From an uncultured Candidatus Saccharibacteria bacterium (lineage in GTDB: Bacteria; Patescibacteriota; Saccharimonadia; Saccharimonadales; Saccharimonadaceae): 64,000 bases of DNA. Location of the stretch: the NCBI GenBank assembly GCA_963515375.1, contig CAUPWE010000004.1, positions 1,080 through 65,079 on the forward strand, written 5' to 3'. Position numbers and translations under genes: made by a program. The notes under the pieces are model-generated. The model had not been told where the DNA came from, ran no database searches, and was given only the letters and a program-made list of their open reading frames with translations. Of this stretch, positions 2,910 through 64,000 are shown piece after piece; the stretch's first letter is position 1; each line of letters opens with the position of its first letter.

Positions 2910-4823
2910 ATGGGTAAAATTATCGGAATCGACCTCGGTACAACCAACAGCGCCTTTGCGTATATGCTGGCGGGCAAACCAGAGGTTATCGCTAATGCTG
3001 AGGGTAATCGTACGACGCCGTCAGTGGTAGCAATTAATAAAAAGGGCGAACGCTTGGTTGGACAAGTGGCTCAGCGCCAACGTGTAACCAATCCAAAGAA
3101 CACGATTTACGGTGTCAAGCGGTTGATCGGTCGTAAATTTAATGACAAGGAAGTTCAAAAAGACTTGGATATCATGCCGTACCAGATTGTCAAAAAAGGC
3201 ACCGGCGTGGCCGTGAAAATGGGCGACAAGGAATACACGCCAGAAGAAGTTTCAGCCATGATCCTCAGTAAAATCAAAGCTGATGCTGAGGCATTCCTGG
3301 GTGAAAAAGTCACCGAAGCGGTCATCACTGTGCCGGCCTACTTCGACGATTCGCAGCGCCAGGCGACCAAGGATGCTGGTAAAATTGCTGGCCTGGAAGT
3401 CAAACGCATCATCAATGAGCCAACGGCCGCTGCTTTAGCGTACGGCCTGGAGAAAGGTAAAAATGACGAAACCATCGTGGTGTTTGACCTCGGTGGTGGT
3501 ACCTTTGACGTTTCCATTCTGGAGCTGGGCGACGGCGTGTTTGAGGTGAAGGCCACCAATGGTGACACCCACCTGGGCGGTGAGGACTTTGACAATATCA
3601 TCGTTAACTATTTCCTGGATGACTTCAAATCTAAAGAAGGCATCGACCTACGCAAAGACAATGCAGCCATGCAGCGCCTGAAGGACGAAGCCGAAAAGGC
3701 CAAGAAGGAGCTGTCGACAGTCACTGAATACGAAGTTAATATTCCGTTTATCACCGCTGATGCTGACGGGCCAAAGCACTTTGAGTTGAGCCTAACGCGG
3801 GCTAAATTGGAAGATTTGGTGAAAGATCTGCTAGCGCGCCTCGACGGTCCAGTTGAAAAAGCGCTCAAAGACGCCAAACTCTCTAAATCAGACATCCAAA
3901 ACGTGGTGATGGTTGGCGGTATGACCCGCATGCCAGCAGTGGTTGAGCGAGTGAAGAAGCTGTTCGGCAAAGACCCAATGCAGGGTGTTAACCCAGACGA
4001 AGTGGTAGCTGTCGGTGCAGCTATTCAGGGTGGTGTGCTAGCCGGCGACGTCAAAGATGTGCTACTGCTGGACGTAACACCATTGAGTCTTGGTATTGAG
4101 ACAATGGGCGGCGTGTCAACCAAGCTGATTGAGCGCAACACTACTGTGCCGACCAGCAAGAGCGAAGTGTTCTCAACCGCTGCCGACAACCAGCCGCAGG
4201 TGGAAATTCACGTCTTGCAGGGTGAGCGCGAATTCGCCAATGACAACAAGAGCTTGGGCCGCTTTGTGCTTGATGGTATCGCACCAGCACCACGCGGCGT
4301 GCCGCAGATTGAAGTGACGTTTAACATCGACGCTAACGGTATCCTCAATGTTACCGCCAAAGATAAAGGCACCGGCAAGGAACAATCAATTACCATCCAA
4401 AACTCTGGTAACATGAGCAAGGAAGACATCGAAAAAGCCCAGAAAGAGGCCGAGCTGCACGCCGACGAGGATAAGAAAAAGCGCGAAACCGTTGGCGCTA
4501 AAAACCAGCTGGAAAATGCCATCTATCAGGCAAAGAAAATGCCAGATGAGTTCAAGGATAAGATCTCTGACGATGATAAAAAGGCGATTGACGAAGCAGT
4601 CAAGGAAGCAGAAAAGCACAAAGACGCTGATGACAAGGACGAGCTAGAGGCGGCAGCCAAAGCACTGCAGGATGCCATCATGCCGATTGGTGCCAAAATG
4701 TATCAGCAAGCTGCTGAGGACAACAAGACTGATGAGTCCAAGGACGATAAAAAGTCTGACAAGGATGAGCCAGTCGAAGGCGAGGTGGTTGACGACGACA
4801 CCAAGAAAAAGGGTAAAAAGTAG
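2910..4823 (+). CDS. dnaK: Chaperone DnaK (Hsp70)
   Basis: [24 protein letters not shown] and [11 protein letters not shown]; start moved to ATG 2910 after the AAAGGGG SD. Confidence 0.99.
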
Positions 4824-4841
4824 GCTAATTATGTCGATATA

Positions 4842-4874
4842 TAAAATAGCCGGGAGTAAACACCGGCTATTTTA
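4842..4874 (+). terminator. Intrinsic (probably bidirectional) terminator after dnaK
   Basis: TAAAATAGCCGG-gagtaaaca-CCGGCTATTTTA. Confidence 0.85.
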
Positions 4875-5026
4875 GTGTAATACTAAGTGTTATGTGCTAT
4901 AATAAATCATGGAGCTACTAAGTAAACAACTACTCCGCACATAGATATAGGTAATTAACCATGGTGCAGCATAGGCACCATGTTTTTTATTATCAAAAAT
5001 CTGCATTCAAAATAGGAAGGAGATGC

Positions 5027-5157
5027 ATGAAATTATTGGAACAATCAATAGAAATAGCAGAAAAGCTCATCAGGGTGAGTATAGGCGAGATGGAACATTA
5101 TATATTGAACACCCTCTACGCGTTATGTCGGCTTGGTGTCTGTTCATTGAGAAGTAA
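5027..5157 (+). pseudogene. Frameshifted, truncated remnant of an HD-domain (p)ppGpp hydrolase-like (SpoT HD / Mesh1-like) gene
   Basis: SD plus ATG 5027 gives MKLLEQSIEIAEK; restoring one A at 5061-5064 continues AHQGEYRRDGTLYIEHPLRVM, then TAA 5155-5157; the HD motif is absent. Confidence 0.7.
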
Positions 5158-5293
5158 TTTGCTCTTTGAGTGTAGATGGTTAGGCTTTCTCGTACCTAGT
5201 ACAGTTTAGGGCTTAGTGTCTTTGTTTTGTTATTGCTGGCCAACACTATTCAGGATAATCAGTTTGATTATTGTGATGATGTAGTCAACTAAT

Positions 5294-5320
5294 CTAGCAC
5301 TCTTGCGTGTCGAGTGCTAA
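5294..5320. promoter_or_regulatory. CIRCE operator upstream of dnaJ
   Basis: cTAGCACTC-ttgcgtgtc-GAGTGCTAA; -35 TTGCGT 5303-5308, 17 nt, TATAAT 5326-5331. Confidence 0.95.
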
Positions 5321-5339
5321 AAGCGTATAATGAACGTAT

Positions 5340-6449
5340 ATGAGCAAGCGTGATTATTATGAAGTGTTAGGCGTGTCAAAATCGGCCTCAGAAGATGAGA
5401 TTAAGAAAGCTTTTCGCAAATTGGCGGTGAAATACCATCCGGATAAACAGGGCGGCGACGAGGCGAAATTCAAAGAAATCAATGAAGCATACGAAGTTCT
5501 GAAGGATAAGCAAAAGCGCCAGCGCTACGATCAATTTGGCCATGCTGGCGTCGGCGGTGCGTCGGGCGGCGGTTTTTCTGGCAATCCGTTTGAAGGGTTT
5601 GGTGGCTTTGGCGGGCAAAATATTCATTTTGACTTTGGCGACGGCGGCTTGGGAGATATTTTCAGCCAGTTTTTTGGCAGCGCGGCTGGCAGTTCGGGCG
5701 GCGGACGTCCGCGCGGGCGCGATATTGAAACGAATATAACATTAAGCTTTGAAGATGCAGTGTTTGGCGTGGAAAAGAAAATTAGCTTGAATCTGGAGGA
5801 TGAGTGCGAACACTGTCATGGCAATGGCGCCGAGCCGGGATTCGGTATGAAAACATGTCCGACCTGCAAAGGCGCCGGCCAGCAAACGCGGGTGATGAAT
5901 TCGTTGTTCGGGCAAATCCAGCAGGCGGTTACTTGTGAAACCTGTCGGGGCAAGGGGAAAATTCCGGAAAAAGAATGCTCGGTTTGCCGCGGCAAAGGTA
6001 CGACTCGCCAGCATCAAGATATTACTGTTAAGATTCCGGCGGGGATTGATGATGGCGCGACTATTCGCCTGCGTGAGCGCGGCGAGGCGGTAGCTGGCGG
6101 CAGTAAGGGAGATTTATATATCCATATCCGCGTTAAGGCGCATAAAAAGTTCACCCGCGAGGGCGATATTATCCTTTCAGAAGAGCATATTTCCATGGTT
6201 GATGCGGCATTGGGGACGGAAATTGACGTGGAGACTGTGGACGGCGTTATTACTATGAAAATTCCAGCTGGCACCCAGTCGGGGACTGATTTTAAGCTAT
6301 CCGGCCACGGCGTGCCGCATTTGCGCAGTGAATCGCGCGGTCCGCATATTGTGGGCGTAGTGGTTGATACGCCAACCAAATTAACGAAAAAACAGAAAGA
6401 ACTTTTAGAGCAGTTTAAGGGAACGAAGAAGCGCGGCTTGTTTTCGTAG
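5340..6449 (+). CDS. dnaJ: Chaperone DnaJ
   Basis: J domain with HPD, G/F region and four CxxCxGxG repeats. Confidence 0.99.
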
Positions 6450-59190: not shown

Positions 59191-60759
59191 CTATAGTTGT
59201 CGCCGGCTAGCAACGTAAGCTAATCCTGCCGTCAGCAGTGCGCCAACCCCTAGTCCGCTCATTAACAGGTCGCTGGAACCAGTTTGTGGCAGGGATGATG
59301 GTGTAGCTGACTTTGGATTTGATGGCGTCGTTTCTGGGTTTGTTGGTGTCTGAGCTGAAGGTTTGGTTGGACTACTTGGGCTTGTTGGTGTAGTTGGTTT
59401 GGCTGGAGATGACGGATTCGATGGTTTTTCTGGAACAGTGGGATTTGTCGGTTTTGAAGGCTCAGTTGGCTTATTTGGATTACTAGGGTTCGTTGGTGTA
59501 GTTGGCTTGCTAATCTCAACAGTAGCGTCATCGCAGGAGTCTGGGGTGTTTGCATTCGGATTTGCGACGCCTGGCGCATCGACGCAAGCGGTATTTTTAA
59601 TCTTACCATCCTGGGCTGTAGGGATTTTTGCGGTAATGGTAAAGTTAGCAGACTGGCCGGATTTTAGCTCAGTGATAGTATGCGTCCATTTATTGTCTTT
59701 TATAGCGCCGGCACTTGCCTTTACGAAAGTAACTCCCTTTGGTGCGTCGTCGGTAGCGGCAATATTTTTCAAGTCAGTTTCACCAGTATTGGTGACTTTA
59801 ATCTGGTAGGTAAATTCGGTATTGAGATTGACAACTTTATGTTTAGCACCGTCAGCTAGTTTTTCAACTTTCACACCAGATTTCTTTGGGGTTGGCGCTT
59901 CACCATCTCCAATAACAAAGGCTTTTGTGCAATCTTCGCTGGTAACGGTTTTCTCTGAATCCTTCAAGGCTACAGTAATAAAGGCCTTCACGGTGTATTT
60001 GCCTGGCTTGAAGCCCTCAAACTTACCGTTGTCTGAGCTGTAAACTTCATTATTTGCAGAGTCGTAGACTTTATACGTGACTTTCTTGAAAATTGCGCCG
60101 TTATTGGCGGTGTATTTGACAGAGAACTTAAAACTGTCTTGGGAGATTTTATCAATGGAAAGAGCATTACACTGGTAAACAGGAGTTTGCTCGCAGCTTT
60201 TTTCAACTTTTACGCTGGCTTCGGCGTGTTTAGTGCCTTCCTGAATCGCTGCGCCAGCGGTACTTGAGAAGGAAACGCTACTACCGCAGGTCAGATTATC
60301 AACAGTAACTTTAGCTTGGTAGGTGATGATGGCGTTGGTGTTTGGCGCGTAGTTACCAAGATTAAGTGTTTTATTGAATATATCGCCATTTAATGTCGTG
60401 CCTTGAGGATTGTTACTATTGGTGAGCTTTGTTGAGCCGTCAATATATGTTAGTCCGCTTGGTAATTTATCCTTAACGAGGACATCACGCTGTTCGGTCG
60501 TGCTGGTATTTTTATACTCTAGGCGGTATTCAATAGTGTCGCCAGGGTTAACGGTTACGCTTTTTTGCCAAGCAGTGTCACCTTGTTTACGAACTTGCTT
60601 GGTAAAAGAAAAATTCGGCTGACCAGTATTGGTGTTGTTTTGGTTTGCTGTGCCCAGTGCGTTCAGTGCCGCTGGTAAGGATATAGCCATAATTGTAGCC
60701 ATGGCTAATGCGTAAAATCGCTTTGGAATGCTCCGCAGCCAATCAAAACTTTTATGCAT
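59191..60759 (-). CDS. LPXTG cell-wall-anchored surface protein with two DUF11-type Ig domains
   Basis: Signal peptide; VNPGDTIEY..DKLPSGLTY and FTYQIKVTNTG..DDAPKGVTF; P/T/S stalk; LPQTG, TM helix and RR tail. Confidence 0.9.
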   Translation of the reverse strand: MHKSFDWLRSIPKRFYALAMATIMAISLPAALNALGTANQNNTNTGQPNFSFTKQVRKQGDTAWQKSVTVNPGDTIEYRLEYKNTSTTEQRDVLVKDKLPSGLTYIDGSTKLTNSNNPQGTTLNGDIFNKTLNLGNYAPNTNAIITYQAKVTVDNLTCGSSVSFSSTAGAAIQEGTKHAEASVKVEKSCEQTPVYQCNALSIDKISQDSFKFSVKYTANNGAIFKKVTYKVYDSANNEVYSSDNGKFEGFKPGKYTVKAFITVALKDSEKTVTSEDCTKAFVIGDGEAPTPKKSGVKVEKLADGAKHKVVNLNTEFTYQIKVTNTGETDLKNIAATDDAPKGVTFVKASAGAIKDNKWTHTITELKSGQSANFTITAKIPTAQDGKIKNTACVDAPGVANPNANTPDSCDDATVEISKPTTPTNPSNPNKPTEPSKPTNPTVPEKPSNPSSPAKPTTPTSPSSPTKPSAQTPTNPETTPSNPKSATPSSLPQTGSSDLLMSGLGVGALLTAGLAYVASRRQL

Positions 60760-60916: not shown

Positions 60917-60991
60917 GGCCTTATCGTCTAACGGTTAGGACACCAGGTTTTCATCCTGGCAATCCGGGTTCGATTCCCGGTAAGGTCACCA
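60917..60991 (+). tRNA. tRNA-Glu(UUC)
   Basis: Anticodon arm CCAGG-TTTTCAT-CCTGG; CCA end; terminator at 61002-61024. Confidence 0.96.
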
Positions 60992-61104
60992 TGTGACAGA
61001 CAGAAGACCTTACTGGTCTTTTTTATTTGTTTTTAATCTTGCAAGGAACTTATGCTTACTATAAAATGATGCTAAGATAGTAGTAATAGCAGGGTAGGGA
61101 TCTA

Positions 61105-61917
61105 ATGATAAAGAGTAGCGCGATAAAAACAAAACACGCAAACGTTAGAAAGGTCCAGGACGGTAAAAGATCGCCTAAAGACACTCCTGTGCAAAAAGTA
61201 CACTCTAGACTAAAATCCACCCGAAAGCGTATATCAAAATTCTGGATTATAGCTGGAGTTGCTATATTAATAGCTGCTATCTACCTGCTCATCAATGGCG
61301 GTGCCTTGGTAGAGCAACATAAAATGGCGCAATACCTTAAGGAAAAGTATGGGAAAGAGTTTATAGTAGAAAATTATCGCATTGAGGGTGGCGGTATTGG
61401 AGTTGAGGGCGATCCGTATGTGGATGCTTATCCGGTTGATGATAGTAGTCTTAGGTTTGAAGTGTGGAATAGAGCTGACTATAGAAAAGGCGAGAGTGCT
61501 TACTCTGATACCTATCCAGATCGTATTTGGGAAAGAGAGTCTAGGAATGATATAGCTAACCTAGTTAGCAAGCAGTTTGGCGGTAGAGCTAGACTCAAAT
61601 CAATAAGAATAAACAGCGATATAGAGGTTGGCAGAGCTATTACGAAAAACATACCCTCCTATAAAGATGCATTTAATAAATTTGGCAGAAAAATATATAT
61701 GACAATATCTTTAGAGAATGACGTTAATTTTGATGATTTGTCAGAGCATATATATAGAGTGACTTCTGAAATAAGAAAGCAAATGGGCGTAATGCTGGCT
61801 ATAGACTATCATGATTCACTACATAAGCTATGGCTGGAGGATCAGGACATTAGCAATATGAAATCTTCGAGTGACGTAGATAAATATATAAAGAGGAGGT
61901 GGAGTGAACATAACTAA
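61105..61917 (+). CDS. Membrane-anchored extracytoplasmic protein; candidate immunity or anchor partner of the downstream lipase
   Basis: Basic N-terminus, one TM helix, YLKEKYGKEFIV..D.Y pattern; overlaps the next gene's start. Confidence 0.8.
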   Translation: MIKSSAIKTKHANVRKVQDGKRSPKDTPVQKVHSRLKSTRKRISKFWIIAGVAILIAAIYLLINGGALVEQHKMAQYLKEKYGKEFIVENYRIEGGGIGVEGDPYVDAYPVDDSSLRFEVWNRADYRKGESAYSDTYPDRIWERESRNDIANLVSKQFGGRARLKSIRINSDIEVGRAITKNIPSYKDAFNKFGRKIYMTISLENDVNFDDLSEHIYRVTSEIRKQMGVMLAIDYHDSLHKLWLEDQDISNMKSSSDVDKYIKRRWSEHN

Positions 61918-64000
61918 TGAGCAATATTTGGCCTTAAGCGCGCTGGCGTATTCGGATATAAGCACATATTACAATAAGAAACAGACAACAATAGGCTATC
62001 TTATAGGTAATAATAGAATCAAGGACTATTTAGGTAAAGATGGTTCTGTCTCTCCGGAATTTTCTGCTTTATCTACCCTTAAGGACTGGATTATTATTGA
62101 TACCTATTCAAATAGTTCATCAGGTTTTTATGGTATCGCTATTCAAGATCCCGCAACAAAAGATATAGTGTTTGCTTATAGGGGTACTCAGGCGGACATA
62201 TTGGGTAATGACTTTAGTCCTAGTGATATATTCACAGACTTGCAAATAGGGTTGAGGATACTACCGCAACAGTTTGTCGATGCGGTAAATTTTTATCATC
62301 AAGTAAGTCAAACATATGGATCACAATATTTGGTAGACTACAGTTTTACTGGGCATTCTTTAGGAGGCGCTATTGCCCAGTTTATGACGTATTCAAGCGC
62401 AACAGACGACAAGATATATGACTCAGTTACTTTTAATGCTGTCAGCCCCGTCCCTATTATTAAATCTATGGATAGTGATTTTAATAAAAAATGGAGCCGT
62501 TTTTATAACTATAGCACGGATCATGTCAACTCCCTTGACTGGGTCGGTATGTATTATGGTGCGGACTTAGGAAAGACTATTCGACACATCAATAATACCG
62601 AAATTGATTATAAAAGGGTTAATTTTGAAGCTGTGTCAAAAATGTTATTGATAAAGCTTCAGGTTGTCAAGGGCATAATTAGCAATGCTGAAGGCTATAA
62701 GCGAATACAGGATTTTATAAAAAATGTAGATGGCTCTATATCAAATGGGTCTGATGGATATTCAGTAGAAGATACATTGATGTTTTATAGAGGACAAGCT
62801 GGAGGTGTTAGTGGTGAGCTTGGAGGTGGCTTTCTAGATTTCTCACATCACCACTTAAGCCAGTTTTTACGAGATGACCCTAACAAGGCGGGCTTCCAGT
62901 ATGCTATGACAAGTACAGTTGATTCCCAATACGAGTTTGCTGACAATAGTGATATTCTGCAATTTATCAACGCCTTAACTGTTATTGAGATAGCAAAAGC
63001 CAATGACAGCGCTCGTTTTAATAAAATTATGCCTTCAGACACACCTCCTCTAGGCGCGTATTCAAGTGGGGGCGTCCTTTATATTTTGCCTGACGGAACT
63101 TATAGTTGGGGAACTTATTCCGATGCGTCGATTGCTTACGCTAAATATATTGTCCAAAAATATGAGCGTCTTCTTGTTTCGGGCGAATTTATGAAGTCGT
63201 ATGTTGATATGCAGAAAGCCCAAGCCGAACAGAACCGACGTATTGATCCATTGATATTTGATTTGGACGGCGATGGAATAACGACAATTTCACTTGAAGA
63301 ATCAAACGCTTTCTTTGATTTGGATAACAACGGTTTCGCTGAAAAAACCTCGTGGGTTGGTGCCAAAGAAGGTTTGCTGGCGTACGATAAAAATGGCGAC
63401 GGGATAATTAATGGCGGTAACGAACTGTTTGGCGACCGTACTTTAATGAAGGATGGTAAGACATTGGCGTCAAGCGGTTTTGCTGCCTTGGCAGAGTATG
63501 ATGATAATAAGGATGGCAAGATCGACAGTAATGACGCAATATATACGCTGTTACGGATTTGGCAAGATTCTGACGGTGATGGTATTACTTCTGCTGGCGA
63601 GTTAAGGCGATTGGTTGATCTGGGGATTGTGTCTATCGGGTTGTCGTATAGCAACACTGGTGTGACCGATAGTGCTAATAACATCCAAGTGCGGACAGGA
63701 ACGTTTACCTTGGCAGATGGCAGTTCTCGGGCAGTTGGAGAATACCTACTAAATCGTAATCCAGTACATTCGGTAGATTCGTCGCCGATAGAGATTTCTG
63801 ATAGCGTTGCGTTATTGCCAAATGTGCAGGGAGCAGGAAATGTTGGCTCACTGCATAAAGCGATAATGCAGGATAAATCCGGTTCTTTGCGTGGCTTGGT
63901 TGAGCAATTTATTACAGAAAAGGATGTCGCAAAACGCGAGGCGTTGACTGAAGGTATTTTGGCGCACTGGGCGGGAGTGGATTCTGTTGATCCGAAAAGC
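61904..64000 (+). CDS. Class-3-type lipase fused to a FrpC-type Ca2+-dependent self-processing module (partial, runs off the window)
   Basis: GTG 61904 after AGGAGGT, with no stop to the window end; FAYRGT, FTGHSLGG (62351), IDPLIFDLDGDG (63245), FDLDNNG, DKNGDGIINGGNELFGD and WQDSDGDG. Confidence 0.9.
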   Translation, partial: MNITNEQYLALSALAYSDISTYYNKKQTTIGYLIGNNRIKDYLGKDGSVSPEFSALSTLKDWIIIDTYSNSSSGFYGIAIQDPATKDIVFAYRGTQADILGNDFSPSDIFTDLQIGLRILPQQFVDAVNFYHQVSQTYGSQYLVDYSFTGHSLGGAIAQFMTYSSATDDKIYDSVTFNAVSPVPIIKSMDSDFNKKWSRFYNYSTDHVNSLDWVGMYYGADLGKTIRHINNTEIDYKRVNFEAVSKMLLIKLQVVKGIISNAEGYKRIQDFIKNVDGSISNGSDGYSVEDTLMFYRGQAGGVSGELGGGFLDFSHHHLSQFLRDDPNKAGFQYAMTSTVDSQYEFADNSDILQFINALTVIEIAKANDSARFNKIMPSDTPPLGAYSSGGVLYILPDGTYSWGTYSDASIAYAKYIVQKYERLLVSGEFMKSYVDMQKAQAEQNRRIDPLIFDLDGDGITTISLEESNAFFDLDNNGFAEKTSWVGAKEGLLAYDKNGDGIINGGNELFGDRTLMKDGKTLASSGFAALAEYDDNKDGKIDSNDAIYTLLRIWQDSDGDGITSAGELRRLVDLGIVSIGLSYSNTGVTDSANNIQVRTGTFTLADGSSRAVGEYLLNRNPVHSVDSSPIEISDSVALLPNVQGAGNVGSLHKAIMQDKSGSLRGLVEQFITEKDVAKREALTEGILAHWAGVDSVDPKS

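Follow-up and report, generated by a model that had tools for sequence, protein, structure and literature searches.

Layout of the RTX-lipase locus

We analysed a window of 64,000 nucleotides (positions 1080-65079 of contig C4) from a 785-kb Candidatus Saccharibacteria genome, G000, which is assembled in six contigs and is 98.5% complete, with an estimated contamination of 0.34%. At the right end of this window lies a pair of genes on the forward strand. The second and longer one encodes a predicted RTX protein with a lipase-like N-terminal domain and an FrpC-type self-processing module, and the gene directly upstream encodes a single-pass membrane protein that we refer to as the partner. An initial annotation, made from the letters of the window, had picked out the longer gene as an open reading frame (ORF) of at least 699 amino acids (aa) running from position 61904 to the window end, translationally coupled to a partner with a single transmembrane segment and located just after a tRNA-Glu. 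This ORF is real: it starts with GTG, occupies 61904..64000 (+), is open for 699 aa in the window and reaches 1052 aa at the contig end. The coupling and the position next to the tRNA were likewise borne out. The GTG start overlaps the end of the partner gene by 14 nucleotides (nt), and a GAGGAGG site lies 4 nt before the GTG. In what follows, labels of the form G### denote genomes compared, L### loci or records and P0044 a public protein, while C4 and C5 are contigs of G000. The features at the locus are as follows.

60917..60991, forward strand: tRNA-Glu (UUC), called by ARAGORN; left border of the variable locus
61002..61022, forward strand: terminator-like hairpin 3' of the tRNA, from a consensus scan only
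61039..61067, forward strand: promoter-like site TTGCAA-17-TAAAAT before the partner gene, from a consensus scan (9/12 matches); not evidence of function
61105..61917, forward strand: partner gene, 270 aa, single-pass membrane protein (ORF)
61893..61899, forward strand: Shine-Dalgarno site GAGGAGG for the RTX gene, within the 3' end of the partner gene (sequence reading)
61904..63247, forward strand: lipase-like cargo, aa 1-448, ending in Asp448 (Pfam, Foldseek, profile search, invariant residues)
61904..62068, forward strand: first ~55 codons of the RTX gene, co-inherited with the partner gene, upstream of the recombination breakpoint (identity comparisons; stubs of 56-87 aa remaining next to orphan partner genes)
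63245..63250, forward strand: predicted scissile bond Asp448-Pro449 (alignment to FrpC Asp414-Pro415)
63248..63778, forward strand: self-processing module, aa 449-625, with EF-hand-like DxDxDG loops, Trp484 and Trp553 (phmmer against 6sjw)
63779..64000, forward strand: start of a conserved linker domain after the self-processing module; the gene continues past the window

The RTX gene leaves the window in frame, and its RTX nonapeptide blocks begin at about aa 830, beyond the window. Among the remaining contig ends of the genome, only that of C5 held matching sequence. C5 starts with the final 130 aa of an RTX protein, ending in QYWTAPTA. Complete orthologues from two related genomes (2056 and 2063 aa), which have extra RTX blocks, finish with an identical sequence, and that of P0044 is similar. 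Both contig ends, namely the final 55 nt of C4 and the initial 55 nt of C5, are exact copies of sequence inside the first repeat block of the gene, 24 nt apart; exact 55-nt repeats at two contig ends are typical of a k-mer assembly break. Joining the two contigs accordingly gives 1052 + 9 + 130 = 1191 aa, which is exactly the length of P0044, a complete protein that is 98% identical. Because of these repeat positions and this equality of length, we took the gene to be whole and the break to be an assembly effect of the repeat, with a full-length RTX protein that is probably 1191 aa long. Directly 3' of the C5 tail come a 713-aa ABC exporter and then a 466-aa adaptor. The gene order partner, RTX, hlyB, hlyD, pyk, pgk, tpi was found in G009 and G027, and agrees with C5 of G000.

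HemolysinCabind matched the RTX protein with E 8e-16, and the C5 tail matched HCBP_related together with a weak RTX_C match. By homology, the protein runs from the lipase-like domain through the self-processing module and the linker to two RTX blocks and a C-terminal signal. Extending the contig in search of RTX repeats and a secretion system, as the initial annotation had proposed, thus yielded the repeats, the C-terminal signal and hlyB/hlyD. No signal peptide or hydrophobic segment was found in the 699-aa part of the RTX protein, where the best 19-residue hydropathy window reached 1.27, and here too the annotation was right. On the strength of gene order and domain content, we consider it reasonably probable that the window end is the promoter-proximal part of a four-gene accessory operon (partner, RTX-lipase, hlyB, hlyD) of an oral Candidatus Nanosynbacter.

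A gene that reaches a contig end in an assembly of six contigs, and that has stub counterparts in six related genomes, some of them with a stop codon, might instead be an artefact, namely a contaminant contig, an assembly chimera or a decaying pseudogene. We regard this as very improbable. The frame is open across 1052 aa, the break falls inside a 55-nt exact repeat and the inferred length is that of a complete 98%-identical protein. The same operon occurs in the same chromosomal context in related genomes, the GC content is 0.43 against 0.435-0.475 for the contigs, the contamination estimate is low, and the close relatives found were all from Saccharibacteria. Contamination and chimera formation were rejected on the basis of synteny, GC content, repeat structure and the taxonomy of the relatives.

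The RTX protein carries an FrpC-type self-processing module

Residues 449-623 aligned in phmmer to residues 1-175 of the FrpC module chain (6sjw, E 8.4e-36; 6sjx, E 2.6e-35), the reference module being about 177 residues long (FrpC 415-591). In this alignment Asp448-Pro449 falls on Asp414-Pro415 of FrpC, and the motif opens DPLIFDLDGDG, so that the FrpC-type module lies at the very bond at which the initial annotation had placed it. Asp448 was invariant in 28/28 sequences and the proline next to it nearly so. Kuban et al. (PMC7078468) name W451/W519, L475, G477, D478, G491 and D579-L582 as structurally important residues of FrpC. Six of these (W451, L475, G477, D478, G491 and W519) are kept at the aligned positions of the present module, and L581 and L582 are kept too. 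In a further study, the divergent homologous modules that were tested all cleaved with calcium (PMC12538545). Judged from the alignment, Ca2+-dependent cleavage at Asp448-Pro449 is likely.

The close relatives of the protein all carry the precomputed Pfam accessions PF26745 and PF26363. These may already name the self-processing module or the linker.

The N-terminal cargo resembles class-3 lipases

The N-terminal domain contains the motifs FAYRGT (R93-G94-T95), GHSLGG with Ser152, DWVG with Asp212 and HHHLSQF with His316. All of the motifs that had been quoted from this domain and from the opening of the module (AYRGT, GHSLGG with Ser152, DWVG, HHHLSQF, DPLIFDLDGDG) stand at the positions that had been given for them. 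The codons of Ser152 and Asp212 lie at 62357-62359 and 62537-62539, and that of the candidate His316 at 62849-62851. Pfam Lipase_3 (PF01764) matched with 23.6 bits when the 699-aa part was the query and with 22.8 bits for the 1052-aa query, against a cut-off of 22, and Asp212 lies at the end of this match. The Mbeg1-like model gave no match for this protein and did match relatives. Foldseek returned M37 lipase and the Rhizomucor and Thermomyces lipases with probability 1.0 (E 4e-5 to 1e-3), and the listed matches at E<=0.001 were in 25/25 cases lipases, feruloyl esterases or a lipase effector (type VI secretion system, 9cys_A). A profile of 11 N-domains reached the Thermomyces and other fungal lipases at E 1e-3 to 1e-2, with the RGT strand aligned on SFRGS and GHSLGG on FTGHSLGGALA of the Thermomyces lipase. 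Ser152, Asp212 and the RGT motif were invariant across every alignment made. We take HLSQF to resemble the histidine motif of the fungal lipases. An AlphaFold2 (AF2) model of the domain, built on 28 sequences, had a mean predicted local distance difference test score (pLDDT) of 64.8; it was good over aa 1-205 and fell below 50 at 207-233 and 298-347. Together, these sequence and fold likenesses support the lipase-like domain of the initial annotation and point to a class-3/Mbeg1-like lipase as the N-terminal cargo, with Ser152, Asp212 and, probably, His316 as candidates for the catalytic triad.

Another reading is that the domain does not hydrolyse lipids in vivo. It might instead serve as a binding module, or work as an esterase or acyltransferase on the cell wall or on other substrates, and the whole system would in that case be a clip-and-link adhesin, as proposed for FrpC, without any part in lipid use. 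The sequence likeness to class-3 lipases is confined to the oxyanion strand and the nucleophile elbow, the TM-scores normalised to the target are 0.3-0.46, the Pfam score is marginal, and the alpha/beta-hydrolase fold serves many activities. For RTX proteins that bear the self-processing module, no cytotoxicity was found (PMC7078468), and the Frp proteins have no known biological activity (PMC3034196). We nevertheless judge a non-lipase role quite unlikely, since the invariance of Ser152, Asp212 and the RGT motif argues for catalysis, and since all the Foldseek matches listed at E<=0.001 belong to lipases, feruloyl esterases or the lipase effector.

The operon encodes a HlyB/HlyD-type exporter

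The exporter scored 951.9 bits with the HlyB model TIGR01846 (cut-off 725.55) and the adaptor 281.8 bits with the HlyD model TIGR01843 (cut-off 208.65). The N-terminal domain of the exporter is closest to the C39-like domain of E. coli HlyB (3zua, E 9.5e-12). It reads DPG where E. coli HlyB has DYG, that is, it has a proline in place of Tyr9, a position that we take to be that of the lost catalytic cysteine of the C39 domain. By homology, this is an exporter of the HlyB type with a degenerate C39-like domain, together with a HlyD adaptor. Outside Saccharibacteria, the nearest named HlyB relatives are from Bacillota (Clostridia, Syntrophomonas, Anaerocolumna) at 64-70% identity. The outer membrane component OEP/TolC (PF02321) was not found in the 98.5% complete genome, in a search whose control matched 8/14 reference genomes. 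PMC3034196 notes, for a Gram-positive bacterium, that TolC is not needed where there is no outer membrane.

Two neighbouring genes were also observed. On C5 at 3945-5348 (-), between hlyD and pyk, there is a 467-aa ORF; Pfam and NCBIfam gave no family for it, and G009 and G027 lack it at this site. Just to the left of the tRNA, 59191-60759 (-) encodes a surface protein of 522 aa. It has two DUF11 repeats and a stalk rich in proline and threonine, and it carries an LPXTG-type anchor (LPQTGS followed by a hydrophobic tail). Because of this anchor, the cell also has a sortase-type route of surface display.

The operon is accessory and its parts recombine

We used a sample of 131 Candidatus Nanosynbacter genomes, this one included, to follow the operon through the genus. 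A match to RTX aa 1-625 was present in 32/131 genomes, of which 24 had the self-processing module, 6 had stubs only and 2 gave partial or weak matches. HlyB was above its cut-off in 28/131 genomes, including 23/24 of those with an RTX gene that encodes the module. Outside the genus, 1 of about 397 genomes from other genera of the order had the self-processing module, at 38% identity, and a phylum-wide draw of 400 genomes gave a single weak module match (E 4.5e-4). The closest record to the RTX protein is from a Candidatus Nanosynbacter sp. at 99% identity, and the relatives that span the whole N-domain are all from Saccharibacteria. The operon is accessory and, within the Patescibacteria searched, nearly restricted to the genus.

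We then compared the parts of the system across 20 loci that hold both an RTX gene and a partner gene. The pairwise identities were as follows.

Self-processing module: 54-99%, median 85%
RTX N-domain: 16-100%, median 34%
Adjacent partner: 9-100%, median 19%

The RTX proteins of G018 and G022 differ only in the first ~60 aa and are ~96% identical thereafter. In this pattern the lipase core acts like a cassette that can be exchanged, with a conserved stretch near aa 55 and the conserved self-processing module as its borders. On these comparisons the system appears to be modular, with a conserved self-processing module and a lipase core that behaves as a swappable cassette.

Several loci show the RTX gene in other states. 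Stubs of 36-87 N-terminal aa, 85-96% identical to the query, were seen in G011 (L017, C1 7366-8425), G078, G086, G013, G101 and G005. Two of them end in a TAA stop, and five of the six adjoin partner genes that are intact and 94-97% identical. The gene directly after the stub in G011 is pyk, and HlyB was above cut-off in 0/6 stub genomes. Since pyk stands next to the G011 stub and no HlyB passed the cut-off in any of the six, these genomes seem to have lost hlyBD along with the remainder of the RTX gene; the three differing stub lengths suggest separate events or later erosion. A second locus with an RTX gene encoding the module lies elsewhere in the chromosome, at L091 (G141:C3 2295-10081) and also in G096:C2, G131:C6, G094:C1 and G142:C5. 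At these second loci the lipase-like N-domain is more distant (26-27% identity) and is accompanied by its own array of 2-3 partner paralogues. L091 has no hlyBD downstream, and G142 has the second type of RTX gene with no HlyB above cut-off.

Related architectures were seen beyond this group of genes. An alphaproteobacterial protein, L054, combines an N-terminal Lipase_3/Mbeg1-like domain, a self-processing module at 870-1039 (E 3e-31) and RTX repeats. Together with L055 and L083, it belongs to a set of records (Alphaproteobacteria, Parvibaculum, Methylococcaceae) with an N-terminal Lipase_3-like signature and RTX repeats, for which no partner-family gene was found within 4 kb. Proteobacterial proteins of the L054 type mean that lipase cargo on clip-and-link proteins is wider than Saccharibacteria. 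Within Saccharibacteria, the records L027 and L030-L037, a sister group, encode lipase-RTX proteins of ~850 aa after up to four tandem partner paralogues. L027 showed no self-processing module in comparison with the PDB, and in L030-L037 the Asp-Pro motif was absent by a pattern search only.

The partner belongs to a large family of membrane proteins

The partner has its transmembrane segment at aa 46-64, in agreement with the single segment of the initial annotation. The preceding residues 1-45 contain 15 K/R against 2 D/E, and since this strongly basic tail comes before the membrane segment, the body of the protein should face outwards. No Pfam family matched the partner at E<=0.1 and no NCBIfam family matched it; among 34 relatives none was above cut-off. 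An AF2 model (pLDDT 76) shows a long membrane helix and then two alpha/beta domains. The best fold match of the ectodomain was 4gl6 (DUF5037), with a VIA Z of 11.5 and a root mean square deviation of 5.7 over 196 residues, the next entry having Z 7.0. Foldseek gave E 1.3e-5 for the same pair, at a sequence identity of 14-16%. The 4gl6 match explains nothing about the mechanism of the partner. The first ectodomain was weakly cystatin-like (Z 6-7). FrpD was absent from the Foldseek matches listed for the partner and from the 50 VIA matches listed.

A profile of 12 members reached 800 clusters at E<=1e-3 and 382 at E<=1e-10, the listed members being ~110-285 aa long. The nearest Atlas clusters are Bacillota hypothetical proteins, some of them YfjL-like. 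A member of the family lay directly upstream of the RTX gene at 20/20 loci, at -20 to +18 nt from its start. None of the Saccharibacteria loci examined lacked an upstream partner, and there were often 2-4 paralogues in tandem. The partner type of G000 occurs in sixteen species-level genomes, with 94-97% protein identity and a synonymous divergence (dS) of ~0.03-0.06. In G022, G074 and G079 this type is the distal member of the array, ahead of a different lipase type.

Genes of the partner family were also seen next to lipases outside Saccharibacteria. In L044, L052 and L059 (Acidaminobacteraceae, Halanaerobacter, Kroppenstedtia), such genes (hidden Markov model E 1e-7 to 6e-18) adjoin Mbeg1-like/Lipase_3 proteins without RTX repeats. 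These three loci suggest an older two-gene module of partner and lipase in Bacillota.

Docking or self-protection as possible roles of the partner

The initial annotation had offered two roles for the upstream protein, tether or immunity, and both were weighed against the comparative data. In the docking role, the partner would take hold of the exported protein by its N-terminal end and keep it at the surface of the producer, with a logic like that of FrpD and an unrelated fold; we hold this reading tentatively, as one that may apply. The main rival role, self-protection against the lipase, seems to us somewhat unlikely. Between the two, we lean towards docking, with a folding helper or an unrelated surface protein taking up the remainder.

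In its full form, self-protection would make the operon a toxin-immunity pair. The exported protein would be a phospholipase that attacks bacteria, either the host Actinobacterium or rival Saccharibacteria, and the outward-facing, membrane-anchored partner would be the immunity protein that guards the membrane of the producer, as Tli does against Tle. We rate this, too, on the doubtful side, even though many observations suit it. Tandem arrays hold 2 to 4 divergent partner paralogues. A partner gene was present in 48/131 genus genomes, of which 26 had no RTX gene with the self-processing module, and 23 of those 26 had no HlyB either. At the same site before pyk, G062 keeps three partner paralogues and G011 keeps one together with an RTX stub of 86 aa. 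Orphan partner copies were intact in 11/11 cases examined, with a median ratio of nonsynonymous to synonymous divergence (dN/dS) of 0.34, which is weak evidence because dS is only ~0.06. Divergence is faster in the partner than in the lipase, as 45% against 82% in G141 illustrates, and the topology of the partner suits protection of the outer leaflet. The weak cystatin likeness of its first ectodomain, the type VI lipase effector 9cys_A among the fold matches of the lipase, and the partner-family genes beside Mbeg1-like lipases without RTX in the three Bacillota loci would also fit an immunity protein.

If the partner were a cognate immunity protein, however, it should travel with the lipase that it neutralises, and it does not. 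Partner identity correlated with that of the rest of the RTX protein, or of the lipase core, at a Spearman coefficient of 0.22-0.24. G018 and G022 have cores that are 95% identical and adjacent partners that are 28% identical, with no shared array member, whereas the partners of G074 and G079 are 93% identical and their cores only 37%. The core is swapped as a cassette without the partner gene, and strict immunity would then poison the recombinant. Strict cognate immunity, which the arrays and orphans had led us to favour at first, was down-weighted because the partner type does not follow the lipase core, and the immunity half of the earlier proposal is weakened.

Docking draws on the N-terminal end of the RTX protein. 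Partner identity correlated with that of RTX aa 1-55 at rho 0.59, and among locus pairs with partners >=60% identical, 23/23 also had aa 1-55 >=60% identical and 13/23 shared the core. The correlation with aa 1-55 was 0.60 for the membrane-proximal half of the partner and 0.34 for the RTX-adjacent half. Plain linkage would not predict the stronger membrane-proximal correlation, because the RTX-adjacent half is the closer one on the DNA. These correlations are a hint and not a test, as the loci are kin and the distal half of the partner is hypervariable.

Three points count against docking. The link between the partner and aa 1-55 may be plain physical linkage of neighbouring DNA and not binding. 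Docking also leaves unexplained the 23 genomes that have intact partner genes and in which no RTX gene or HlyB-type exporter was found, as well as the arrays of up to four partner paralogues. Two runs of a complex prediction for lipase aa 1-448 and aa 84-270 of the partner ectodomain both gave a score of 0.00, which counts neither way. Whichever role applies, it is not tied to the clip-and-link reaction, because the partner also accompanies lipase-RTX genes without a self-processing module.

Proposed mechanism and biological setting

Our best explanation of the locus, an FrpC-like clip-and-link RTX-lipase operon together with its mechanism, carries one joint confidence, which we would put at somewhat better than even. 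In this mechanism, HlyB and HlyD would thread the unfolded RTX protein out across the single membrane, C-terminus first. External Ca2+ would then fold the RTX blocks and the self-processing module, and the strained Asp448-Pro449 bond would break, so that the 448-residue lipase would leave with a reactive aspartic anhydride at its C-terminus. Hydrolysis of this anhydride would yield free lipase, and attack by a nearby amine would instead join the lipase through an isopeptide link to a protein on the closest surface. The lipase or phospholipase would act on lipids in the zone of contact between epibiont and host. The partner would be co-translated and anchored in the epibiont membrane with its body outward.

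Within the partner family, the most conserved stretch is M74-x3-L78-x2-K81-Y82-x3-F86, just outside the membrane helix, with Lys81 (61345-61347) invariant. Lys81 is a candidate acceptor for the aspartic anhydride.

Some observations pull the other way and keep our confidence in this explanation limited. The adjacency of C4 and C5 was inferred and not read through by sequence. In the module, D579 of FrpC is replaced by Glu and L580 by Tyr. As for the cargo, the Pfam Lipase_3 score is barely above its cut-off, and His316, invariant in 28/28 sequences, is unaligned in four more distant relatives. The geometry of the triad is also unconfirmed, because pLDDT lies below 50 around Asp212 and His316.

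The lipid supply of the cell was considered as a setting for the enzyme. Ketoacyl synthase, DegV and PlsY were not found in the G000 genome, in which two PlsC-like acyltransferases are present. For a genome without ketoacyl synthase, dependence on outside lipids is plausible. The initial annotation had pictured the released lipase as a means of lipid harvesting from the host, but the operon cannot be a general lipid-supply route of Saccharibacteria, because it is accessory, as the counts of 24/131 genus genomes and 1 of about 397 other-genus genomes make plain. As an accessory system that recombines and varies from strain to strain, the locus is likelier to serve in fighting or exploiting particular hosts or competitors than in core metabolism.

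A more far-reaching reading, to which we give little weight, would make the operon a covalent tool of the interface. The lipase would be held by its N-terminal end on the partner, clipped, captured by an amine through its anhydride and fixed permanently in the contact zone, where it would feed lipid to a cell without ketoacyl synthase. A conserved chassis, made up of the self-processing module and the unit of partner and RTX N-terminus, would take recombined lipase cores, and in bacteria that lack an outer membrane the partner family, so far unnamed, would generally accompany Mbeg1-like lipases. Candidates for the capturing amine would be a lysine of a host surface protein, Lys/Orn of the peptidoglycan of the host Actinobacterium, or Lys81 of the partner.

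Clip-and-link chemistry is well understood, and protein ligation already makes use of it (NeissLock), but no natural purpose is known for it, since FrpC has a cargo that resembles nothing. The recognisable enzyme cargo found here and in a few Proteobacteria supplies a testable purpose, namely planting an active lipase on a neighbouring surface. Saccharibacteria live attached to Actinobacteria, and genetics is now possible in the group; the operon is a concrete, strain-variable candidate effector of epibiont-host or epibiont-epibiont interaction. The self-processing module was reportedly described in 2020 as exclusive to Gram-negative bacteria. Its range is now widened to Patescibacteria, where it occurs with a TolC-less HlyB/HlyD exporter. 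The partner adds a large unnamed membrane-protein family of 800 clusters, a member of which adjoins every Saccharibacteria lipase-RTX gene examined.

Comparison with known systems

Our search of the literature on RTX, hemolysin, type I secretion and lipase in Saccharibacteria/TM7x, and on clip-and-link lipases, returned no description of this system. PMC7739484 mentions an RTX-related gene cluster in oral TM7, and PMC10633639 makes no mention of RTX, lipase, phospholipase, type I secretion systems or calcium.

Among systems with partial likeness, the family I.3 lipases (Pseudomonas sp. MIS38, Serratia LipA type, 2z8x) are also type I-exported lipases with an RTX beta-roll, and the RTX part matched them at E 2e-8. 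They belong to a different lipase family with a weak fold match (rank 36), lack the self-processing module and hence any release or covalent linkage, and have no upstream partner. The Tle/Tli pairs of type VI secretion likewise set a lipase-fold toxin beside a small outward-facing protein with a membrane or lipid anchor, occur with arrays and orphans, and include the 9cys_A fold match. Their export route is another one, and the present partner differs in lying upstream, in not co-varying with the lipase core and in showing no sequence or fold likeness to Tli among the matches seen. DUF5037 RUMGNA_01148 (4gl6), with its YfjL-like counterparts in Bacillota, is the sole clear fold match of the partner, which did not fall into that family by sequence.

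FtxA of Filifactor alocis and the RTX-HlyB-HlyD operon of Streptococcus sanguinis SK36, two systems of oral bacteria that lack an outer membrane, were compared by description and not by sequence. According to PMC7692872, FtxA has a region similar to the FrpC self-processing module, no conserved N-terminal domain was detected in it, and its GXSXXG does not qualify as a nucleophile elbow. In the present protein, unlike FtxA, the lipase signature is conserved. For S. sanguinis, PMC3034196 describes an RTX protein with HlyB/HlyD and no TolC.

The closest likeness is to FrpC/FrpD of Neisseria meningitidis and ApxIVA of Actinobacillus pleuropneumoniae, with a self-processing module that is homologous over its full length and has the Asp-Pro bond at the same position. 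FrpC, like the protein described here, carries RTX blocks and a C-terminal type I signal, and directly upstream of it the operon likewise encodes a surface-anchored protein. The review PMC3034196 describes polymorphism for FrpA against FrpC, whose N-terminal parts are unrelated and whose RTX blocks vary in number, and this polymorphism of the FrpC family resembles what we see in the present system. The two differ in their cargo, a recognisable lipase-like enzyme here, whereas aa 1-414 of FrpC resemble nothing known. They also differ in the host, here a Patescibacterium in which no TolC was found, and in the exporter, whose nearest named relatives are from Bacillota and not from Proteobacteria. 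The partner here is a single-pass membrane protein with a DUF5037-like fold, while FrpD is an outer-membrane lipoprotein, and no likeness between them was seen among the matches listed. The kind of system is known, namely clip-and-link RTX proteins of the polymorphic FrpC-like family that are exported by type I secretion. The enzymatic lipase cargo, the Patescibacterial host, the TolC-less exporter with its nearest named relatives in Bacillota, the cassette-like exchange of cargo and the unnamed partner family are new.

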